From IMG/VR virus record IMGVR_UViG_2737471862_000006: 19,368 nt of DNA. The stretch is one strand, 5' to 3'. A program made the translations under genes and the position numbers. Below the pieces are notes generated by a model, which was not told the DNA's origin, searched no databases, and saw nothing but the letters and a program-made list of their open reading frames with translations. Of this stretch, positions 3,615 to 17,816 are shown one piece after another. How positions within the stretch are numbered: the first letter of the stretch is position 1; each line of letters begins with the position of its first letter. This stretch comes from a virus (lineage: Duplodnaviria; Heunggongvirae; Uroviricota; Caudoviricetes).

Positions 3615-4157
3615 TCAAGCCATTTTCTCAGCAAATGATTCACGCATGGGAATATATAGGGCATACTCAGCAACAGCTAACCAATTAGCAATCCGTTTTT
3701 CGCATGTGCTAAAACACCACTCTGGGTGTGCATCATTTAGCAATTCAGCCATTTTGCGCTTAGTCATCCCCCGCCCTTCATAGCGTTGCCGGAGAATGCA
3801 AATCAATCCTGGATGCTCTGCCAGCACCTCACTTATGACTCGATCAATACATAACGCCTCTGCATCAGTACAATGCGCCAGCCAGCTCTTTTGCTTGCCG
3901 TTGATCATCTCTCGCAAAAACGCTTCCAGCTCAGCTTTCTCTATTCCCGCTTTTTTCATTCTGCGCAGGGCTTCATTAATGGCTGTTTTCGTCAGTTTTT
4001 TGGATGCCAACAACTGATTGAACATATTCCCTGACCTGCCACCGCCAATATACGACCAGCGCCCCCACATACGTAGTTTTCCCTGAATCCAGACACTTTC
4101 CAGCGTGGTGAGGCGAAGGTGTTCTCCGCTTTTTCCTGTATTCGTTGGGTAAATCAT
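3615..4157 (-). CDS. Putative late-gene antiterminator (Q-like), 180 aa
   Basis: Call rests on position (last gene before a terminator/promoter-like leader and the lysis cassette, after ybcO-like nin genes) and basic, Cys-containing composition; ATGA overlap with the upstream gene. No sequence match recalled to lambda Q itself. Confidence 0.5.
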   Translation of the reverse strand: MIYPTNTGKSGEHLRLTTLESVWIQGKLRMWGRWSYIGGGRSGNMFNQLLASKKLTKTAINEALRRMKKAGIEKAELEAFLREMINGKQKSWLAHCTDAEALCIDRVISEVLAEHPGLICILRQRYEGRGMTKRKMAELLNDAHPEWCFSTCEKRIANWLAVAEYALYIPMRESFAEKMA

Positions 4158-4444
4158 AAATGACCTTTCTTTCTCCAGATTTCTTGTGTGCGAAAAACCC
4201 CTTCAGCATGCATCAGGCGCAATTCTTCTTTGGTGTAATCGCTGGTTTTTACCCGCCCGTCGATTAGATCGTGGCATGAGCTACAGGCTATCGCCGCCTG
4301 CATATCATGTGGTTTTGTCGCTGTTCCGCACGTCCCCGCCAGCCTGTAATGCGCCAGCACAGAGGTTTCGGGATTGTGATTGCAGTAGCCAGGGATTCTG
4401 ATCTGGCACATCTGGCCTTTAGCCGCTTTACGTAAATTCACCAT
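4154..4444 (-). CDS. YbcO-like (DUF1364) putative nuclease, 96 aa
   Basis: 96-aa Cys/His-rich protein (C..C...H...C..C.H) matching in size and pattern the DLP12 nin-region protein YbcO; start overlaps the upstream stop. Confidence 0.65.
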   Translation of the reverse strand: MVNLRKAAKGQMCQIRIPGYCNHNPETSVLAHYRLAGTCGTATKPHDMQAAIACSSCHDLIDGRVKTSDYTKEELRLMHAEGVFRTQEIWRKKGHL

Positions 4445-5043
4445 TACGCAAACTCCAGTAGTTGTGCGGCCACATTTTCAACTTCCTCCTGAGAGGAGAA
4501 TTTACGGAACAGAATCCAGTTCCACAGCACATTCAGTACAGATTTATAAACCTGCTGAAACTCGACTTCGTCCATATTCGCAAAAGCGATGGATTTTGCC
4601 CGACGCCCACGGCTACCGTCCGGATAAATATGCTCGGTGTAAAATCCGGCCTGAATGGTTACCCACTCGCGGAAAGCCTCAAACGACTTTAGCAACGCCG
4701 TATCCCGGGTTCTACGAGTCGCAACGGTGTTAAGGTATTGCTCTGCGGCATCACTCAGGGCTGGCGTGTGTTCCCGACCAACTGATTCGCACAGGTAATC
4801 AACGAAACCAGACAGCAGTTCTCGTTCGCGAGGCGTGATCGCCCCACCGACCGGAGTCCAGTAATCGAATCCCAGTTGCAGGAGTTTGAAAAAACGCTTG
4901 TGGAATGCGTAGTTACGCACACGCTTAAAGTCTGCGTGTATCCACTCACCTATTTTGATTTGATGCAGAAAATCGCAACTCTCCGGCGTCGCCGGGAGAA
5001 GTAAACCAGAAGAGGTTTGTTTGACCAGTTGTATATGCGCCAT
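4444..5043 (-). CDS. DUF1367-like lambdoid nin-region protein, 199 aa
   Basis: Resembles the conserved prophage protein family that commonly precedes DUF1364/YbcO in lambdoid nin regions; translationally coupled to the ybcO-like gene. Confidence 0.55.
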   Translation of the reverse strand: MAHIQLVKQTSSGLLLPATPESCDFLHQIKIGEWIHADFKRVRNYAFHKRFFKLLQLGFDYWTPVGGAITPRERELLSGFVDYLCESVGREHTPALSDAAEQYLNTVATRRTRDTALLKSFEAFREWVTIQAGFYTEHIYPDGSRGRRAKSIAFANMDEVEFQQVYKSVLNVLWNWILFRKFSSQEEVENVAAQLLEFA

Positions 5044-5323
5044 TTCTCAATCTCTCGATGGCGCAGCGCAGCAGATGCCAGTTGTTCAGGCTGACGAATA
5101 AAGTATAAATAAACTGGCTATGGTGTAAAGCCCCACATAGCATGAACAAACACTACATATCAAATAGCTGGTACAAGGATAGAAATACGACACTTATTAT
5201 TAAAAACGATTAGATAAATTACATTTTAATGTTATGCAAAAGTTCTTTTTTATCATAACATTTCAATAAAAGCATTACAGATGCAATCATCCCGTCATCA
5301 TCAATTATTTAAGGTGGTTAAAC

Positions 5324-5410
5324 ATGGAAAATAACAAGTTCGCACATCTCGCTCCTTTTTTATCCGTAATCCTTTTCGCTTGTTGTTTTATATGGGCATT
5401 ATTTTTATAA
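5324..5410 (+). CDS. Candidate small hydrophobic peptide, 28 aa (MENNKFAHLAPFLSVILFACCFIWALFL)
   Basis: Strong SD AAGGTGG 6 nt upstream of the ATG; single predicted TM helix; lies in the AT-rich island. Coding status unproven. Confidence 0.3.
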   Translation: MENNKFAHLAPFLSVILFACCFIWALFL

Positions 5411-5801
5411 AGTAGCCACATGATAAGTTGCTGGAATCATATTTCCCACTCAAGTCATTAACATTTGATAAGATATATCTAAAAGGACGCCTTTACATTA
5501 TTTATGCGTATATAATTTATTTATATACACAGTAAAGGTATCCTGGGAAAATATTTATCGTTAAAAAATACATCATAAATAATTAAGCTGAAATTTCAGA
5601 ACATAACTAATACACACAATAAGGTTCAGTAACAGTAATCTATGTGGACTACATCGAGATTTTTTGATTAAACTTTAATAACTTATTCCTAACACACAGA
5701 ATGCATAAACTAAAAGTAAAACAAATAGTTATACGAAAAACAACCATATTTATTCTATCTTCTCCTCTAATCAACATATCAATTATGTGTTTCATAACAG
5801 C

Positions 5802-5841
5802 TTGACATAACCCTCCAAAAGATGCATTTTTAATGCATGTT
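5802..5841 (+). promoter_or_regulatory. Candidate promoter (-35 TTGACA at 5802-5807) with NsrR-type operator (5819-5841)
   Basis: AAGATGCATTT-T-TAATGCATGTT matches the 11-1-11 NsrR inverted-repeat consensus (AAGATGCATTT-N-AAATGCATCTT) at 21 of 23 positions and overlaps the predicted -10 region, immediately upstream of the yeaR-like RBS. Confidence 0.55.
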
Positions 5842-5856
5842 TTGGAGGAGGTGGTT

Positions 5857-6195
5857 ATGACACACAAGAGAATTCCTAAAGATTGGGTAATCAAACGCTC
5901 AACTCCGTTCTTCACAAAAGAGAACGTACCTTCAGCGTTATTAACACATCATAATACAGCAGCAGGTGTTTTTGGGCAGTTGTGCGTAATGGAAGGCACT
6001 GTAACATATTATGGTTTTACTGATGAGAATGCTACTGAACCGGAGATAAAAGTAGTCATTAATGCTGGCGCTTTTGCAACAAGCCCACCACAATACTGGC
6101 ACCGTGTTGAACTAAGCGATGATGCTCAGTTTAATATTAACTTTTGGGTCGCTCCAGACTTTTCGGGCGAAAAAGTCTATAGCACCAAAAAATAG
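5857..6195 (+). CDS. YeaR-like DUF1971 protein, 112 aa
   Basis: ATG at 5857 preceded by SD GGAGGAGGTGG; resembles E. coli YeaR as recalled (RSTPFF, MEGTVTYYGF..E..AEPE, FNINFWVAP). The track ORF begins 24 nt upstream at a weaker start. Confidence 0.6.
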   Translation: MTHKRIPKDWVIKRSTPFFTKENVPSALLTHHNTAAGVFGQLCVMEGTVTYYGFTDENATEPEIKVVINAGAFATSPPQYWHRVELSDDAQFNINFWVAPDFSGEKVYSTKK

Positions 6196-6224
6196 ATGAT
6201 CATATTAAAAATGCTTTAACAGTC

Positions 6225-6261
6225 AGACCCGGCAGGGCTATCCCCGACGGGTCTCATTTTT
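6225..6261 (+). terminator. Rho-independent terminator downstream of the yeaR-like gene
   Basis: Stem AGACCCG (6225-6231) / CGGGTCT (6248-6254) with an inner GGG/CCC extension, followed by CATTTTTG. Confidence 0.6.
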
Positions 6262-6772
6262 GTAAATATATTGGTTCTACATTGACAGGAGACTTCAACC
6301 ATAAGAAGTAATCTGAATACTTGAGCAATAAATTTACTTAAGATTAATGAGCGCACCTTGCCGGACAAAGATAAACCAAGGTAACACCTTTTTTCTAGCC
6401 AGTATGTAATCAATCAGAAAGCCGCTCCATAAGAACAACAGCAAGACAATAAATTGCCATTACAGCCGCAATAGCCAGCGCACATTTGAGAACCAGCACG
6501 ACAACCCCCTGTATTAGACGCACACCAGTCCTGATAAATATGAGGCTGTCTCGTCAGTGATTCAATACAACTATTGGGTATAGTTTCTGTGATTTTATTC
6601 TGTAGAAATGGAACACAACAACCAGTCACCACCAGCACTTCCTTAAATGCTCTAAGTCAGAAACAAGCCAACATTTTAGTCCGCTTTGAGCGAAGAGCGG
6701 ACATTGCTAACAGCATCCTGTGTGAATCATTACGATCAAATCGATGACTAGATAAGTACAAACCGGAAAAGG

Positions 6773-6793
6773 GGCCTACTGACGAAGTAGGCC
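6773..6793 (-). terminator. Rho-independent terminator of the three-gene operon
   Basis: Minus-strand GGCCTAC-ttcgtca-GTAGGCC followed by CCTTTTCCGGTTT, 16 nt after the operon stop codon. Confidence 0.6.
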
Positions 6794-6810
6794 TGAGTTC
6801 CTTATATATT

Positions 6811-7467
6811 TCACAAAATTCTGAGAGTTTCTAAGATGGATAAAAGTGTTGGAAGCTGACTCTCTCTCACACGGAATCTACCCGTCCTAGATAATTCCGT
6901 TTCAATTCCGTTAACGAAGAAATGTACGGAATCAAAAACGGCCGAACTATTCATGTATTTATTCTGATAAATTTCTTGGAGATTCTTTGAGCTTACTATT
7001 TTTGTCTTTGCTAAAGTAAAAGGATCAACAGAGATATTAGATAGAGACATGGATTTTATCTTGATGTCAAAGCCCTCAGAAAGACCATTTACAATTTTTC
7101 TCAGATCAAATTCTACTGGTCTCAAGCCACTATCTTCACCAAATAGTTTTTGCACCATAGTATAAGGCACTTTCATACTTAATGGAGGATTAGTGGCATA
7201 TAGTATGATTTTTTTCCCTTGTCTGACGCCAAAGTCCACATTTAAGTAAGTTGCTATTTCAACCTCTGAACGCTCGCCATTAGCATATTCTAAGCTTTGC
7301 TTGCTAATGCTTCTCATGGTAAATCTTAGTTTAAGCACTTCAGAGTTATTAATGATTTGAAAACCATATCCTTTATCTTCATCATAGAGGTTGTCATTTA
7401 CTTTATGTAATAACTCACTTTTAGTTATATCCTTTTCTGCTTTATAAATTTTTACCTTTATCATCAT
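6811..7467 (-). CDS. Hypothetical protein, cassette gene C (218 aa from the ATG at 7467)
   Basis: ATG at 7467 overlaps the stop of gene B (ATGA) and is preceded by SD AGGAGG; AT-rich codon usage; no recognisable motifs. The track ORF start at 7494 is a TTG. Confidence 0.6.
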   Translation of the reverse strand: MMIKVKIYKAEKDITKSELLHKVNDNLYDEDKGYGFQIINNSEVLKLRFTMRSISKQSLEYANGERSEVEIATYLNVDFGVRQGKKIILYATNPPLSMKVPYTMVQKLFGEDSGLRPVEFDLRKIVNGLSEGFDIKIKSMSLSNISVDPFTLAKTKIVSSKNLQEIYQNKYMNSSAVFDSVHFFVNGIETELSRTGRFRVRESQLPTLLSILETLRIL

Positions 7468-8711
7468 CCAGCCTCCTGATTCAAAGTCTCGCAAGACATA
7501 GCTTTCGTTACTGGGTATCGCTTGGTATGCTCTTCGATAATAAAGTCATTAATCAAAAATATTTTATCTTCTAATTGTTTCATGACTTGATCAAAGTCTG
7601 CGTCACTGAGTTTTTCTCTCTCTGCGGATGCAGAGTTGCTTTCTTTGTATAACGCTCTGAATTTTATATTTTTCCCAAGATATTTATCATCGAAACTAAG
7701 TTCAAAAGTTATAGTATGATTCTTAACTACTGAGGAAAATGACTTCCATCGAATTAAGCTTCGATAAAACCCATCACTGCACAGTTCCTTAATTTGAGGT
7801 GCGTTCACTAATGATAGGCCATCATACGCGGCATTGTTAATGTTAAAAGTTAGGTTTTCATCATCGTCAGATGCCATTTCCTGATTATTAATGTCATCAT
7901 CATTTTCGTTATCTGTAGAAGGTGAAATCTTGTTTAATAACTCTTGTGTTTCTTCGTTATTATTTCCTTCGAGATTATCTCCATTAATATCCAGAGATGT
8001 TTTTATTCTGCTTACTCTAACCTTTTCAAGACCAGCATATTCAAGTCCTGTTTTTTTATAATTTCCATCAAAATCATAAAGATGAACAGCAAAAATATTC
8101 CTAAGATCTGTATCGACGATACTTGATAAATCTATTTCGTTGACAACTATGTTGTTACAAACTGTTGATGAATATGTATCAATTATTTGCTTGAGAATTT
8201 CTGAAATGCGTGGCGTATAGTTATATCTTACTGAAACATATCCTTTTTTTACTATAAAAACTATACTCCCACTGTACAATTTTTTCTGCTGAAACTTACC
8301 CCTTCTAAAATCAAACTCAGTATAATCAATAGATATATGATAGGTTTGCAAGCCTGAGTAATGATCAATTTTCTCATGCCCTAGCAACTTGGGTCTATTT
8401 TCTTTCACTTTGTTTACAACGTCATAGAGTTTCTCTATATCAAATTCTTCATATATACGTTTTACTGAGAAGACGTCTTGGCTGGGTTTGGTTGCCAGTT
8501 TATCTTGTACTTCTCTGATGTGATTATATGAAAATGGCAGGTCTGATAATTTTTCTATCAATACCTCTTTTGATAAGTTAGATGGGAAAATTATCCCTCT
8601 ATTGAAGGCGATTTTCCTTAATGTAACATCTGTGATTTTTGCACTGTTAGAGTGGAGGGCGGTATAAATGTCACTTTCGTTTGAAAACAACGTAGCTTGA
8701 TATTTATTCAT
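7464..8711 (-). CDS. Hypothetical protein, cassette gene B (415 aa) with acidic low-complexity central region
   Basis: ATG with SD AAGGAG, 10 nt after the stop of gene A; central Asp/Asn/Glu-rich stretch (NNNEETQ...DNENDDDINNQEMASDDDEN); no Walker or other motifs recognised. Confidence 0.6.
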   Translation of the reverse strand: MNKYQATLFSNESDIYTALHSNSAKITDVTLRKIAFNRGIIFPSNLSKEVLIEKLSDLPFSYNHIREVQDKLATKPSQDVFSVKRIYEEFDIEKLYDVVNKVKENRPKLLGHEKIDHYSGLQTYHISIDYTEFDFRRGKFQQKKLYSGSIVFIVKKGYVSVRYNYTPRISEILKQIIDTYSSTVCNNIVVNEIDLSSIVDTDLRNIFAVHLYDFDGNYKKTGLEYAGLEKVRVSRIKTSLDINGDNLEGNNNEETQELLNKISPSTDNENDDDINNQEMASDDDENLTFNINNAAYDGLSLVNAPQIKELCSDGFYRSLIRWKSFSSVVKNHTITFELSFDDKYLGKNIKFRALYKESNSASAEREKLSDADFDQVMKQLEDKIFLINDFIIEEHTKRYPVTKAMSCETLNQEAG

Positions 8712-8721
8712 GTCATACTCC

Positions 8722-9813
8722 TTATGAAAAGTGACATTTTCTATTCACCTGCTTGCTGGCAACCTGGTACTCAAATATAGATAGCTTTTGATTAACAAAA
8801 GGAATGGATACTATTTTTTCCTTTAACGTTTCTATATGAGATTGAGTGAAAGAATATATTCCTATGTAATCATTAATGGCGGATTGCAAATGAATGCTTG
8901 AGTGTGATGAGAACGGAGTTATAACAAATATTTTGTCAAATTGATTGAGTAATTGATAGTTAAATATATACTCTAAAAGAAATATAAAGTGGTTACTGGA
9001 ATCAACCTCTTCCTTCCAGAATATATTCAATATTTTATTTCTTATTCTATCGCCACCATCATTTCTAATATATTCGTGTTCATATGAGTAAAAAATCATC
9101 CCAGATGTTATCATTTCAATTGTGGCTGGAAGGATTTTCCCTTTCGTTGCTATTTTATTATGTTTGTCAGGGTAAAAATATGTACAGTTCTCTATCTCAG
9201 GAATTTTTTGCCATAACATATTTGTTTCTTGTGTTACTTTGTCAGTAATTCCTCTTCTAGTCTCGATGTGTTCTGTAACATCTAGTAAAAATCTGATCAT
9301 AGTTGGGTCAAAAACGGCAATCACAGAGTTCTCTGGAAAATCATAACTTGCTGTGGCTGCTCCATTTAATTTCTCAATTAAATCAGAGTCATATTTATTG
9401 TCATGATTATATATAAAAAGTAGGCCGTTAACTTGATATTTCTCATTTGTGCTGTCAACAAATAGACGCCGCCACTCAGGACTTCTTGGCGCGCAAGCTA
9501 CCTGTTGTGATAAACTTCGTACAGTGTTCAATATTGATTTTGTACCGTCAAGCGTGCTGGCACAATAAGATTTTAAATCTGTTTGTATATACTGAGTTAT
9601 ATCTGAATAAGGATCTTTATATTTGAAGACTACATCCGTAGGATGAGTTTTTTTTGGGTTTTCAGATAAAAGTTGTTTAGCGTTTAGATGAGATCTCAAA
9701 CAACAGTCCCAACTTATATCCGTTGTATTTTGGGTTTTCCAGCCTAACTCATCAAAAATTCTACTGGAAATGATACCTGCAATCTCATCAATATTCTTAG
9801 TTTCGCCGCCCAC
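8722..9813 (-). CDS. Hypothetical protein, cassette gene A (363 aa, GTG start)
   Basis: GTG start preceded by SD GGAGGA; possible but weak PD-(D/E)xK-like pattern near the N-terminus (HPTDVVF ... IQTDLKSY); no confident family assignment. Confidence 0.55.
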   Translation of the reverse strand: MGGETKNIDEIAGIISSRIFDELGWKTQNTTDISWDCCLRSHLNAKQLLSENPKKTHPTDVVFKYKDPYSDITQYIQTDLKSYCASTLDGTKSILNTVRSLSQQVACAPRSPEWRRLFVDSTNEKYQVNGLLFIYNHDNKYDSDLIEKLNGAATASYDFPENSVIAVFDPTMIRFLLDVTEHIETRRGITDKVTQETNMLWQKIPEIENCTYFYPDKHNKIATKGKILPATIEMITSGMIFYSYEHEYIRNDGGDRIRNKILNIFWKEEVDSSNHFIFLLEYIFNYQLLNQFDKIFVITPFSSHSSIHLQSAINDYIGIYSFTQSHIETLKEKIVSIPFVNQKLSIFEYQVASKQVNRKCHFS

Positions 9814-9885
9814 GCTTCCTCCATAGTTCGTTGTTTTATCTAGTGAAGATCTGATTCATGGTTTTCCAAGCCCATGCGCAAAACA

Positions 9886-9914
9886 ATTAATCAAGTAAGA
9901 ATAATCTTAATCAA
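9886..9914 (-). promoter_or_regulatory. Candidate sigma70 promoter for the three-gene operon
   Basis: Minus-strand TTGATT (9914-9909), 17-nt spacer, ATTAAT (9891-9886); about 70 nt upstream of the gene A start. Confidence 0.4.
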
Positions 9915-10110
9915 TTTAATCTTTTTTATTTGAATCATCAAGAGCCCCATTACTGATAGGCATCAGTTGGTGGTATCTCTGCTCAAGCTTCAGTAAAATC
10001 TGGTTTGCTACTTCCGCTCCTGGCACAAAGCGGACAACCACGCTAGCTCTCCCCTGTGCCAGAAAAATGTCAATTTACATATGAACTAATGCTCTTTGAT
10101 CTAGTAACGT

Positions 10111-17440: not shown

Positions 17441-17635
17441 ATGAGATATGACAATGTTAAACCATGTCCATTTTGTGGTTGTCCATCAGTAACGGTGAAA
17501 GCCATTTCAGGATATTACCGAGCGAAGTGTAACGGATGCGAATCCCGAACCGGTTATGGTGGAAGTGAAAAAGAAGCACTCGAACGATGAAATAAACGAA
17601 CCACTGGAAATAATAATGGAGGTGTTCATGTATAA
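17441..17635 (+). pseudogene. ralR: ralR toxin (restriction-alleviation / DNase) interrupted by an in-frame TGA at codon 50
   Basis: MRYDNVKPCPFCGCPSVTVKAISGYYRAKCNGCESRTGYGGSEKEALER then TGA (17588-17590), then in-frame NKRTTGNNNGGVHV and TAA (17633-17635); total 64 codons as in K-12 RalR, where this codon is TGG (Trp) by my recollection. Confidence 0.65.
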
Positions 17636-17816
17636 AATTACCGCCACTATTGAAAAGGAAGGTGGCACTCCTACTAACTGGACAAGATATTCAAAATCTA
17701 AACTAACGAAATCAGAATGCGAAAAAATGCTCTCAGGTAAAAAAGAAGCAGGCGTTTCCAGAGAGCAGAAAGTAAAACTGATAAATTTTAATTGCGAGAA
17801 ACTTCAGTCCTCGTGA
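17628..17816 (+). CDS. rcbA: RcbA/YdaC-like protein, 62 aa
   Basis: MYKITATIEKEGGTPTNWTRYSKSKLTKSECEKMLSGKK...; ATG overlaps the end of the ralR frame; SD GGAGGTG. Confidence 0.65.
   Translation: MYKITATIEKEGGTPTNWTRYSKSKLTKSECEKMLSGKKEAGVSREQKVKLINFNCEKLQSS

Follow-up and report, generated by a model that had tools for sequence, protein, structure and literature searches.

Known small membrane proteins and phage accessory genes

Small transmembrane regulators such as MgtR, PmrR, MgtS, AcrZ and KdpF are proteins of about 30 residues, in which a few polar N-terminal residues precede a helix that runs to or near the C-terminus. They bind larger membrane proteins through one face of this helix. 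The 28-codon open reading frame (ORF) described here, from a prophage of Escherichia coli, encodes a peptide that shares this architecture, and conservation on one face of its helix is suggestive, though only suggestive, of further likeness. However, the peptide shows no sequence similarity to these regulators, and the ORF is prophage-borne, with no co-oriented neighbour or operon that hints at a target.

Type I toxins (IbsA-E/Sib, ShoB/OhsC, TisB/IstR-1, DinQ/AgrB, ZorO/OrzO, Ldr/Rdl and Hok/Sok) resemble the encoded peptide in being 18-50 residues long with one hydrophobic helix. The ORF is also like their genes in lying in a gap or island, overlooked by gene callers, and in its company: hok adjoins it in most loci, and RalR/RalA is found in the prophage. 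Unlike these toxins, the peptide belongs to no family by sequence, no cognate RNA or complementarity repeat was detected, and the ORF lacks a long structured leader, is single-copy, and encodes a conserved polar N-terminus and no charged C-terminal tail.

Phage morons and lysogenic-conversion genes include bor and lom of lambda, cor of phi80 and N15, and gp15 of HK97. As with morons, the unit carrying the ORF is small and independent, lies between conserved phage modules and against the flanking operon, has a G+C content below that of the phage backbone, and occurs also at the tail-fibre end of another prophage. It differs in that the ORF is much smaller, that the unit forms the fixed edge of a variable region and not the variable cargo itself, and that its promoter and terminator are putative. 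Overall, the ORF family is of a familiar kind, the prophage-borne single-helix membrane peptide, and is not a categorically new system. The ORF itself is probably a real and translated gene for a membrane peptide that annotation has passed over.

The prophage locus

The window (the whole stretch of 19,368 nucleotides that was analysed) is a Rac-like lambdoid prophage of E. coli, 100% identical to NZ_CM184343. The features surrounding the ORF are as follows.

Minus strand: lysis genes, Q-like antiterminator (DUF1133), YbcO and DUF1367 (3615-5043)
About 5050-10100: AT-rich stretch, G+C 29-42% vs 46-52% in the flanks
5044-5856: ORF-bearing gap from the DUF1367 gene to the YeaR-like gene, 30.9% G+C
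5102-5129, - strand: promoter-like TTTACA-16-TATACT, 10 of 12 matches, aimed at the DUF1367-YbcO-Q genes
5812-5848, + strand: palindrome with 17-nt arms (CCTCCAAAAGATGCATT/AATGCATGTTTTGGAGG, 94% complementary), directly before the DUF1971/YeaR-like gene
5857-6195: DUF1971/YeaR-like gene (Pfam, E=2e-26; RefSeq name 'TehB family protein')
6811-9813, - strand: three co-oriented genes of 227, 415 and 363 aa, with no Pfam domain in any
2681-2867, - strand: sRNA STnc100 (Rfam gathering-level match, 87 bits)
17634-17812, - strand: RalA, the antitoxin RNA of the RalR type I system (Rfam gathering-level match, 225 bits)

The AT-rich stretch contains the small ORF, the YeaR-like gene and the three genes on the - strand, and beyond it lie replication and immunity genes, followed by recE. 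The ORF, on the + strand, points away from the DUF1367-Q genes and against the phage early-right operon. Its position in the AT-rich gap before the YeaR-like gene is as the first-pass annotation, made from the letters of the window, had described it. The promoter-like site at 5102-5129, both hexamers of which are conserved in the allele groups with a DUF1367 or YdfU-type neighbour, could drive the antiterminator operon without the early promoter. The match to RalA indicates that the prophage carries a bona fide type I system at another position. As for the three genes at 6811-9813, their products match the candidate defence proteins Hp3, Hp2 and Hp1 of PADLOC (PDLC03006/5/4; E=4e-11, 1e-10 and 5e-41, for the 227-, 415- and 363-aa products, respectively), and the 363-aa product bears the RefSeq label of a PD-(D/E)XK nuclease domain protein. 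The set is a candidate defence system in the cargo region of the prophage.

In the arrangement of the window, the YeaR-like gene is co-oriented with the ORF, lies 446 nt downstream, and is separated from it by no predicted terminator. This arrangement, together with a terminator hairpin 20-30 nt past the stop codon in some alleles, would fit a leader peptide or upstream ORF exerting attenuation or polarity on the downstream gene, here the YeaR-like one. Such a role is highly improbable, given that in about three-quarters of the sampled loci the next gene (hok or an S8 peptidase) is on the opposite strand, that the peptide has no run of regulatory codons, and that the YeaR-like gene has signals of its own directly upstream, namely a TTGACA element at about 5803 and the palindrome at 5812-5848. 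The core of this palindrome, AAGATGCATTTTTAATGCATGTT, resembles the NsrR operator of K-12 yeaR; its arms also pair CCTCC with the GGAGG ribosome-binding site of the YeaR-like gene.

The gap also contains a second short hydrophobic frame of 34 aa (MHKLKVKQIVIRKTTIFILSSPLINISIMCFITA, 5701-5805, + strand), which lacks an obvious ribosome-binding site and is kept, with one substitution, in the close relative L002.

The small frame and its ribosome-binding site

The ORF and its ribosome-binding site are placed as follows.

5311-5317, + strand: Shine-Dalgarno AAGGTGG, followed by the 6-nt spacer TTAAAC
5324-5410, + strand: ORF of 28 codons and a stop codon (ATG 5324-5326, TAA 5408-5410), product MENNKFAHLAPFLSVILFACCFIWALFL

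These coordinates bear out the earlier description of AAGGTGG lying 6 nt 5' of an ATG that opens a 28-codon frame, of which there is no longer in-frame form. No annotation is present at this position in RefSeq or in the phage records. Genes of fewer than about 30 codons escape standard gene callers, and the ORF, at 87 nt including the stop codon, is below the minimum gene length of Prodigal, which is 90 nt. The predicted duplex of the ribosome-binding site with the 3' end of 16S rRNA has an energy of -8.4 kcal/mol in the window allele, -5.2 kcal/mol in the AAGGTGA alleles and -4.4 kcal/mol in the AAAGTGA allele, one of the commonest, with the weaker site AAAGTGAG. The Shine-Dalgarno sequence is thus kept across alleles at variable strength.

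When the gap was shuffled 2000 times with dinucleotide composition preserved, an ATG frame of at least 28 codons was present in 97% of the shuffles, such a frame with a 5-mer Shine-Dalgarno core in 7.5%, and a frame with both the core and an equally hydrophobic 19-mer in 0.4%. Hydrophobicity by itself is weak evidence, because T-rich DNA gives hydrophobic frames easily. The frame alone is unremarkable, and a case made from the single sequence rises only mildly above chance; it is the comparative evidence that decides.

Conservation of the frame

Copies of the ORF were compared across loci with reference to two flanking features.

5193-5239, no strand assigned: conserved AT-rich block CTTATTATTAAAAACGATTAGATAAATTACATTTTAATGTTATGCAA with dyad-symmetric arms, its end about 85 nt 5' of the ATG
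5411-5430, no strand assigned: homology breakpoint, where similarity between allele groups is lost a few bases past the stop codon as the downstream cassettes begin to differ

Conservation was assessed in a sample of about 210 copies, compared with roughly 1175 copies in E. coli as a whole. A frame-blind sample was anchored on the conserved non-coding block about 85-125 nt upstream of the ORF, and in all 134 usable copies so obtained, representing 16 nucleotide alleles, the frame was found to have exactly 28 codons followed by TAA, with no indel or internal stop. A second sample was anchored on codons 11-28, leaving the N-terminus free, and here the ATG and the sequence M[E/G]NN[K/N]x[A/V]H were kept in 74 of 74 copies. 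Of all point changes that could occur, about 11% would abolish the start, stop or frame; with at least 31 variable sites, neutrality would predict about three disruptions.

The alleles fall into four groups: the window type, the hok-linked "maj" or phi80-like type, the L003 type and the L097 type. Between groups, the ORF is 79-83% identical without gaps and the upstream block is 84-94% identical, whereas the spacer between the block and the ribosome-binding site is only 48-59% identical and gapped, and the 3' flank is about 25-47% identical. Variable sites at codon positions 1, 2 and 3 number 5, 9 and 17, respectively. Nei-Gojobori dN/dS values for deep allele pairs are 0.06-0.25 (dS 0.7-1.3), each value resting on 15-18 differences per pair between alleles that are not independent samples, because the family is narrow and its four groups lie essentially within prophages of Escherichia and Shigella. 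Of the alternative frames, five in number, four gave dN/dS values of 0.46-2.6. The last, the antisense frame that shares the wobble positions, also gave low values (0.08-0.35), so that the assignment of the strand rests on the conserved start, ribosome-binding site and length; this antisense frame keeps no constant start or stop across alleles. An antisense ORF of 38 aa (5305-5421, - strand) was considered and rejected, its start and stop not being constant in other alleles.

On these comparisons, the frame is under purifying selection and has a conserved start. Conservation of the peptide, which the first-pass annotation had named as a way to check its proposal, was therefore confirmed by the intact frame in both samples and by the low dN/dS values.

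The encoded peptide

Residues 1-8 of the peptide are polar and nearly invariant, and residues 9-28 are hydrophobic without a break up to the last residue. The best 19-residue Kyte-Doolittle mean is 2.46, in agreement with the hydrophobic single-helix character noticed at first reading. Among 19 peptide variants, replacements in residues 9-28 almost always exchange one hydrophobic residue for another; they involve A, C, F, I, L, V and Y, and only rarely G, S or T. A hydrophobic helix of bilayer-spanning length is retained in every variant. The invariant positions are P11, L13, S14, I16, L17, F18, C21, W24, A25, F27 and L28, and the variable ones are 15, 19, 20, 22, 23 and 26. The variability moment is largest at 100 degrees per residue (0.56), which is not significant by permutation (p=0.076), and the placement of S14, L17/F18, C21, W24/A25 and L28 on one conserved face of a helix is suggestive only.

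Pfam, NCBIfam and PHROGs were searched with two variants of the peptide. No Pfam family was matched at E<=10, none of the NCBIfam toxin families was matched by the window peptide even at E<=10, and the weak NCBIfam and PHROG matches (E 0.03-0.24) involve hydrophobic leaders. Seven peptide variants were looked up exactly in a collection of 15 billion proteins, and none was present. A lipoprotein reading was rejected, as the lipobox [LVI][ASTVI][GAS]C is not conserved across alleles: LFAC is limited to the window type, with FVLC or FVFC in other alleles. Cleavage at the lipobox would leave just 7-8 residues.

A mobile module and its neighbours

The block and the ORF together form a module of about 220 bp that is found also outside this position in the phage. 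Its G+C content is 29-31%, vs 46-52% for the phage genes on its flanks. Of 124 loci, 70 have DUF1367 as the neighbour upstream, and at least 40 have a 92-aa ORF there, with YdfU/DUF968, RusA and an antiterminator beyond it. In the third context, that of loci L097 and L217, the module lies beside tail-fibre genes or the chromosomal gene yebY; L217 8380-9300 (- strand) and L097 300-1200 (+ strand) place it in a shared context of about 1.2 kb adjoining yebY. Core genes of the L217 host (ptrB, copD, exoX and yobA/B) are only about 85% identical to those of E. coli, indicating that this host is another enterobacterium.

The DNA immediately downstream was found to form eight clusters in the sampled loci, which reduce to four types.

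Downstream type 1: hok cassette, convergent with the ORF, about 65% of sampled loci
Downstream type 2: YeaR-like cassette as in the window, 23%
Downstream type 3: bidirectional terminator, then S8-peptidase/AAA genes, 9%
Downstream type 4: L097 type

The cargo past these immediate types is very varied, with more than 35 neighbours when ORFs of at least 80 aa are counted and hok is not. With three different upstream contexts and four downstream types, the block and ORF are a mobile independent module. In the hok-linked loci (L004 4110-4400, L221 3230-3490 and L222 8300-8650, the last being CFT073), the stop codon of the ORF is about 25 nt from the hok terminator hairpin, and this hairpin has its T-run on the hok strand only, so that a transcript of the ORF may read antisense into hok. 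Separately, in phage vB_EcoS-683R6 (L003 3642-7035, - strand), an S8-family peptidase gene and then an FtsH-like/AAA gene lie beside the small ORF. They are probably another defence-type pair at the same position.

The sharp borders of the module bear on whether the peptide matters at all. The element could work in cis, as a recombination anchor where the cargo hotspot ends, as a promoter or an insulator of convergent transcription that would prevent read-through from cargo or hok into the Q operon, or as a non-coding RNA. This reading would account for the end of homology within a few bases of the stop codon, with different cassettes thereafter, and for the upstream non-coding block being even better conserved than the ORF. 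It would suit a unit that opposes the transcription of hok and cargo towards DUF1367-Q, with a conserved leftward promoter-like site (5129-5102) 200 bp away, and it could make use of the possible transcription of the ORF antisense into hok. However, it leaves unexplained the excess of changes at wobble positions, the dN/dS values, the conservative nature of the hydrophobic replacements, the invariant length of 28 codons, and the retention of the ATG and ribosome-binding site; moreover, the frame is kept in L097 and L217, in settings without hok, the Q operon or the hotspot. A purely cis-acting element is for these reasons decidedly unlikely, and a dual role, as RNA and as peptide, is possible.

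The upstream block and transcription signals

The block at 5193-5239 is 84-94% identical between groups in which the adjacent spacer is about 50% identical, and it accompanies the ORF into the unrelated contexts of L097 and L217. It may act as an upstream element of a promoter or as the site of a regulator; its dyad arms, between which the centre is more variable, would suit a dimeric regulator. The block contains TAGATAAATT, which is close to the nucleation motif of H-NS. A second conserved element lies between the block and the ORF.

5254-5262, no strand assigned: conserved CATAACATT element, with CATAAYAT at 5254-5261 and TAACAT at 5256-5261

TAACAT could be the -10 hexamer of the ORF, in which case transcription would begin close to 5268, with a leader of some 56 nt. 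CATAACATT could instead pair, as the right arm, with AATGTTATG (5228-5236) in a dyad, or supply the -10 hexamer of a leftward promoter. As a putative RNA hairpin, AATGTTATG/CATAACATT shows G-U-compatible changes, which come from too few independent substitutions to carry weight.

A simple scan of the window gave neither a + strand promoter nor a terminator for the ORF, and a position-weight-matrix scan of 65 distinct module sequences gave no strong conserved sigma-70 promoter on the + strand. The best conserved promoter candidate in the latter scan is on the - strand, at the 5254-5262 element. Promoter-like sites in the region are not enriched, with three found vs 5.2 expected from shuffles. 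A terminator follows the ORF in some allele groups only. The predicted leaders of about 55-61 nt, whose start site is itself predicted, fold differently in different allele groups and leave the ribosome-binding site largely unpaired; their folding z-scores range from +0.5 to -3.9, the negative values being due to downstream terminators.

Relation to type I toxins

The first-pass annotation had proposed a membrane peptide or a type I toxin. Of these, the membrane peptide is well supported, in that the frame, start and ribosome-binding site are kept and changes gather at wobble positions; the toxin lacks support, each sequence-level hallmark examined being absent or without a clear outcome. A type I toxin of this sort would depolarise the membrane as Ibs, ShoB, TisB and DinQ do, and its translation would be blocked by an antisense or divergent RNA. 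In keeping with this are the size, the lone hydrophobic helix, the good ribosome-binding site and the position in an AT-rich island of a prophage, tail-to-tail with a hok cassette in about 65% of the sampled loci and, in the window, with RalR/RalA at 17.6 kb. From a promoter-like TTATCA-17-AATAAT on the - strand (5426-5398), a transcript antisense to the ORF would be made, and hok-linked alleles offer a similar TTATCT-17-AATAAT. The dyad-symmetric sequence about the candidate -10 would allow tight repression.

Nevertheless, a toxin is an unlikely identity for the peptide. No type I toxin family of Pfam or NCBIfam was matched at E<=10, and no Rfam antitoxin RNA was found in 4900-6000 at E<=5, although RalA scored 225 bits elsewhere in the window. 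A search for an overlapping antisense promoter, suggested at first reading as a check, found none conserved across the allele groups: the 5426-5398 site is lost in the AVFL alleles, where the -10 becomes AATACC, and in L097-type alleles, and promoter-like sites in the region are, as noted above, no commoner than in shuffled sequence. The mRNA shares with the DNA upstream no conserved direct repeat of the kind seen with IstR, OhsC, Orz and AgrB, and the predicted leaders are short, differ between groups and show no consistent pairing with the ribosome-binding site. In addition to the single copy and the lack of a charged C-terminal tail, the polar N-terminus is the most conserved part of the peptide. 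The toxin idea, resting on size and hydrophobicity together with the company of hok and RalR/RalA, is not supported.

Proposed role in the lysogen

The preferred reading is that of a translated membrane peptide encoded by an independent prophage "moron". The unit, of about 220 bp, comprises the AT-rich upstream block, a predicted leader of about 55-90 nt, the ribosome-binding site and the 28-codon frame. Lambdoid (Rac/Qin/phi80-like) prophages in Escherichia and Shigella carry it at that edge of the cargo region which is nearest to Q, the region being bounded by the replication genes on one side and the DUF1367/YdfU-Q module on the other. The unit is oriented against the early-right operon. 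The predicted product is a single-pass inner-membrane peptide, with a polar N-terminus (MENNK.AH) that is probably cytoplasmic and a helix of 20 residues that ends the chain. Its likeliest action, given expression in the lysogen, would be that of a small transmembrane effector whose conserved helix face binds either a partner in the membrane or the peptide itself. The mode of action would then be that of MgtR/PmrR-type small membrane regulators and phage exclusion peptides, and not that of an RNA-controlled pore-forming toxin; this specific mode of regulation or exclusion is put forward tentatively, at clearly less than even chances.

A more far-reaching proposal is that the peptide is a new prophage membrane effector tied to the hotspot of defence and hok cargo, which is a long shot. 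In one version, it may be a toxin or abortive-infection trigger that is silenced by a regulator bound to the conserved dyad block; in another, it may be a peptide, or an antisense unit, that modulates the neighbouring hok or insulates the late-gene switch of Q. Were this proposal true, a fifth of E. coli genomes would carry an unrecognised membrane-active module with no known antitoxin RNA. With regard to the membrane-peptide reading, if the peptide does act on the host membrane, it would be a common and unrecorded lysogenic-conversion factor. Even otherwise, the ORF marks a fixed border of the prophage region, with hok and, further out, varied cargo, and the 220-bp module offers a convenient means of locating cargo islands of lambdoid prophages.

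Distribution in genomes

The 126-nt ORF region was found to match 1175 of 5426 complete E. coli genomes, roughly one in five, nearly always with one copy each, and the matches fall into identity bands that correspond to distinct alleles. It was found also in four phage records, more than 120 IMG/VR contigs and 75 metagenome contigs. Among 185,579 species-representative genomes, only those of Shigella flexneri and Escherichia ruysiae were observed to carry the ORF, in a scan that demanded GAR at codon 2 and thus had the MGNN alleles outside its reach.

E. coli K-12 is without the ORF. The gap between rem and hokD of the Qin prophage was considered as its home in K-12 and rejected, since it contains the hok terminator only. 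The classic K-12 ribosome-profiling sets are accordingly silent on the ORF, because K-12 does not have the gene. The peptide strings were not found in the literature, and the ORF locus is not named in the main text of a preprint on small proteins of CFT073. Carriers include the uropathogen CFT073, E. coli W, ATCC 8739 and clone D i14. The copy of CFT073 lies at NC_004431.1 complement(1338563..1338649), and Ribo-seq data exist for this carrier strain.
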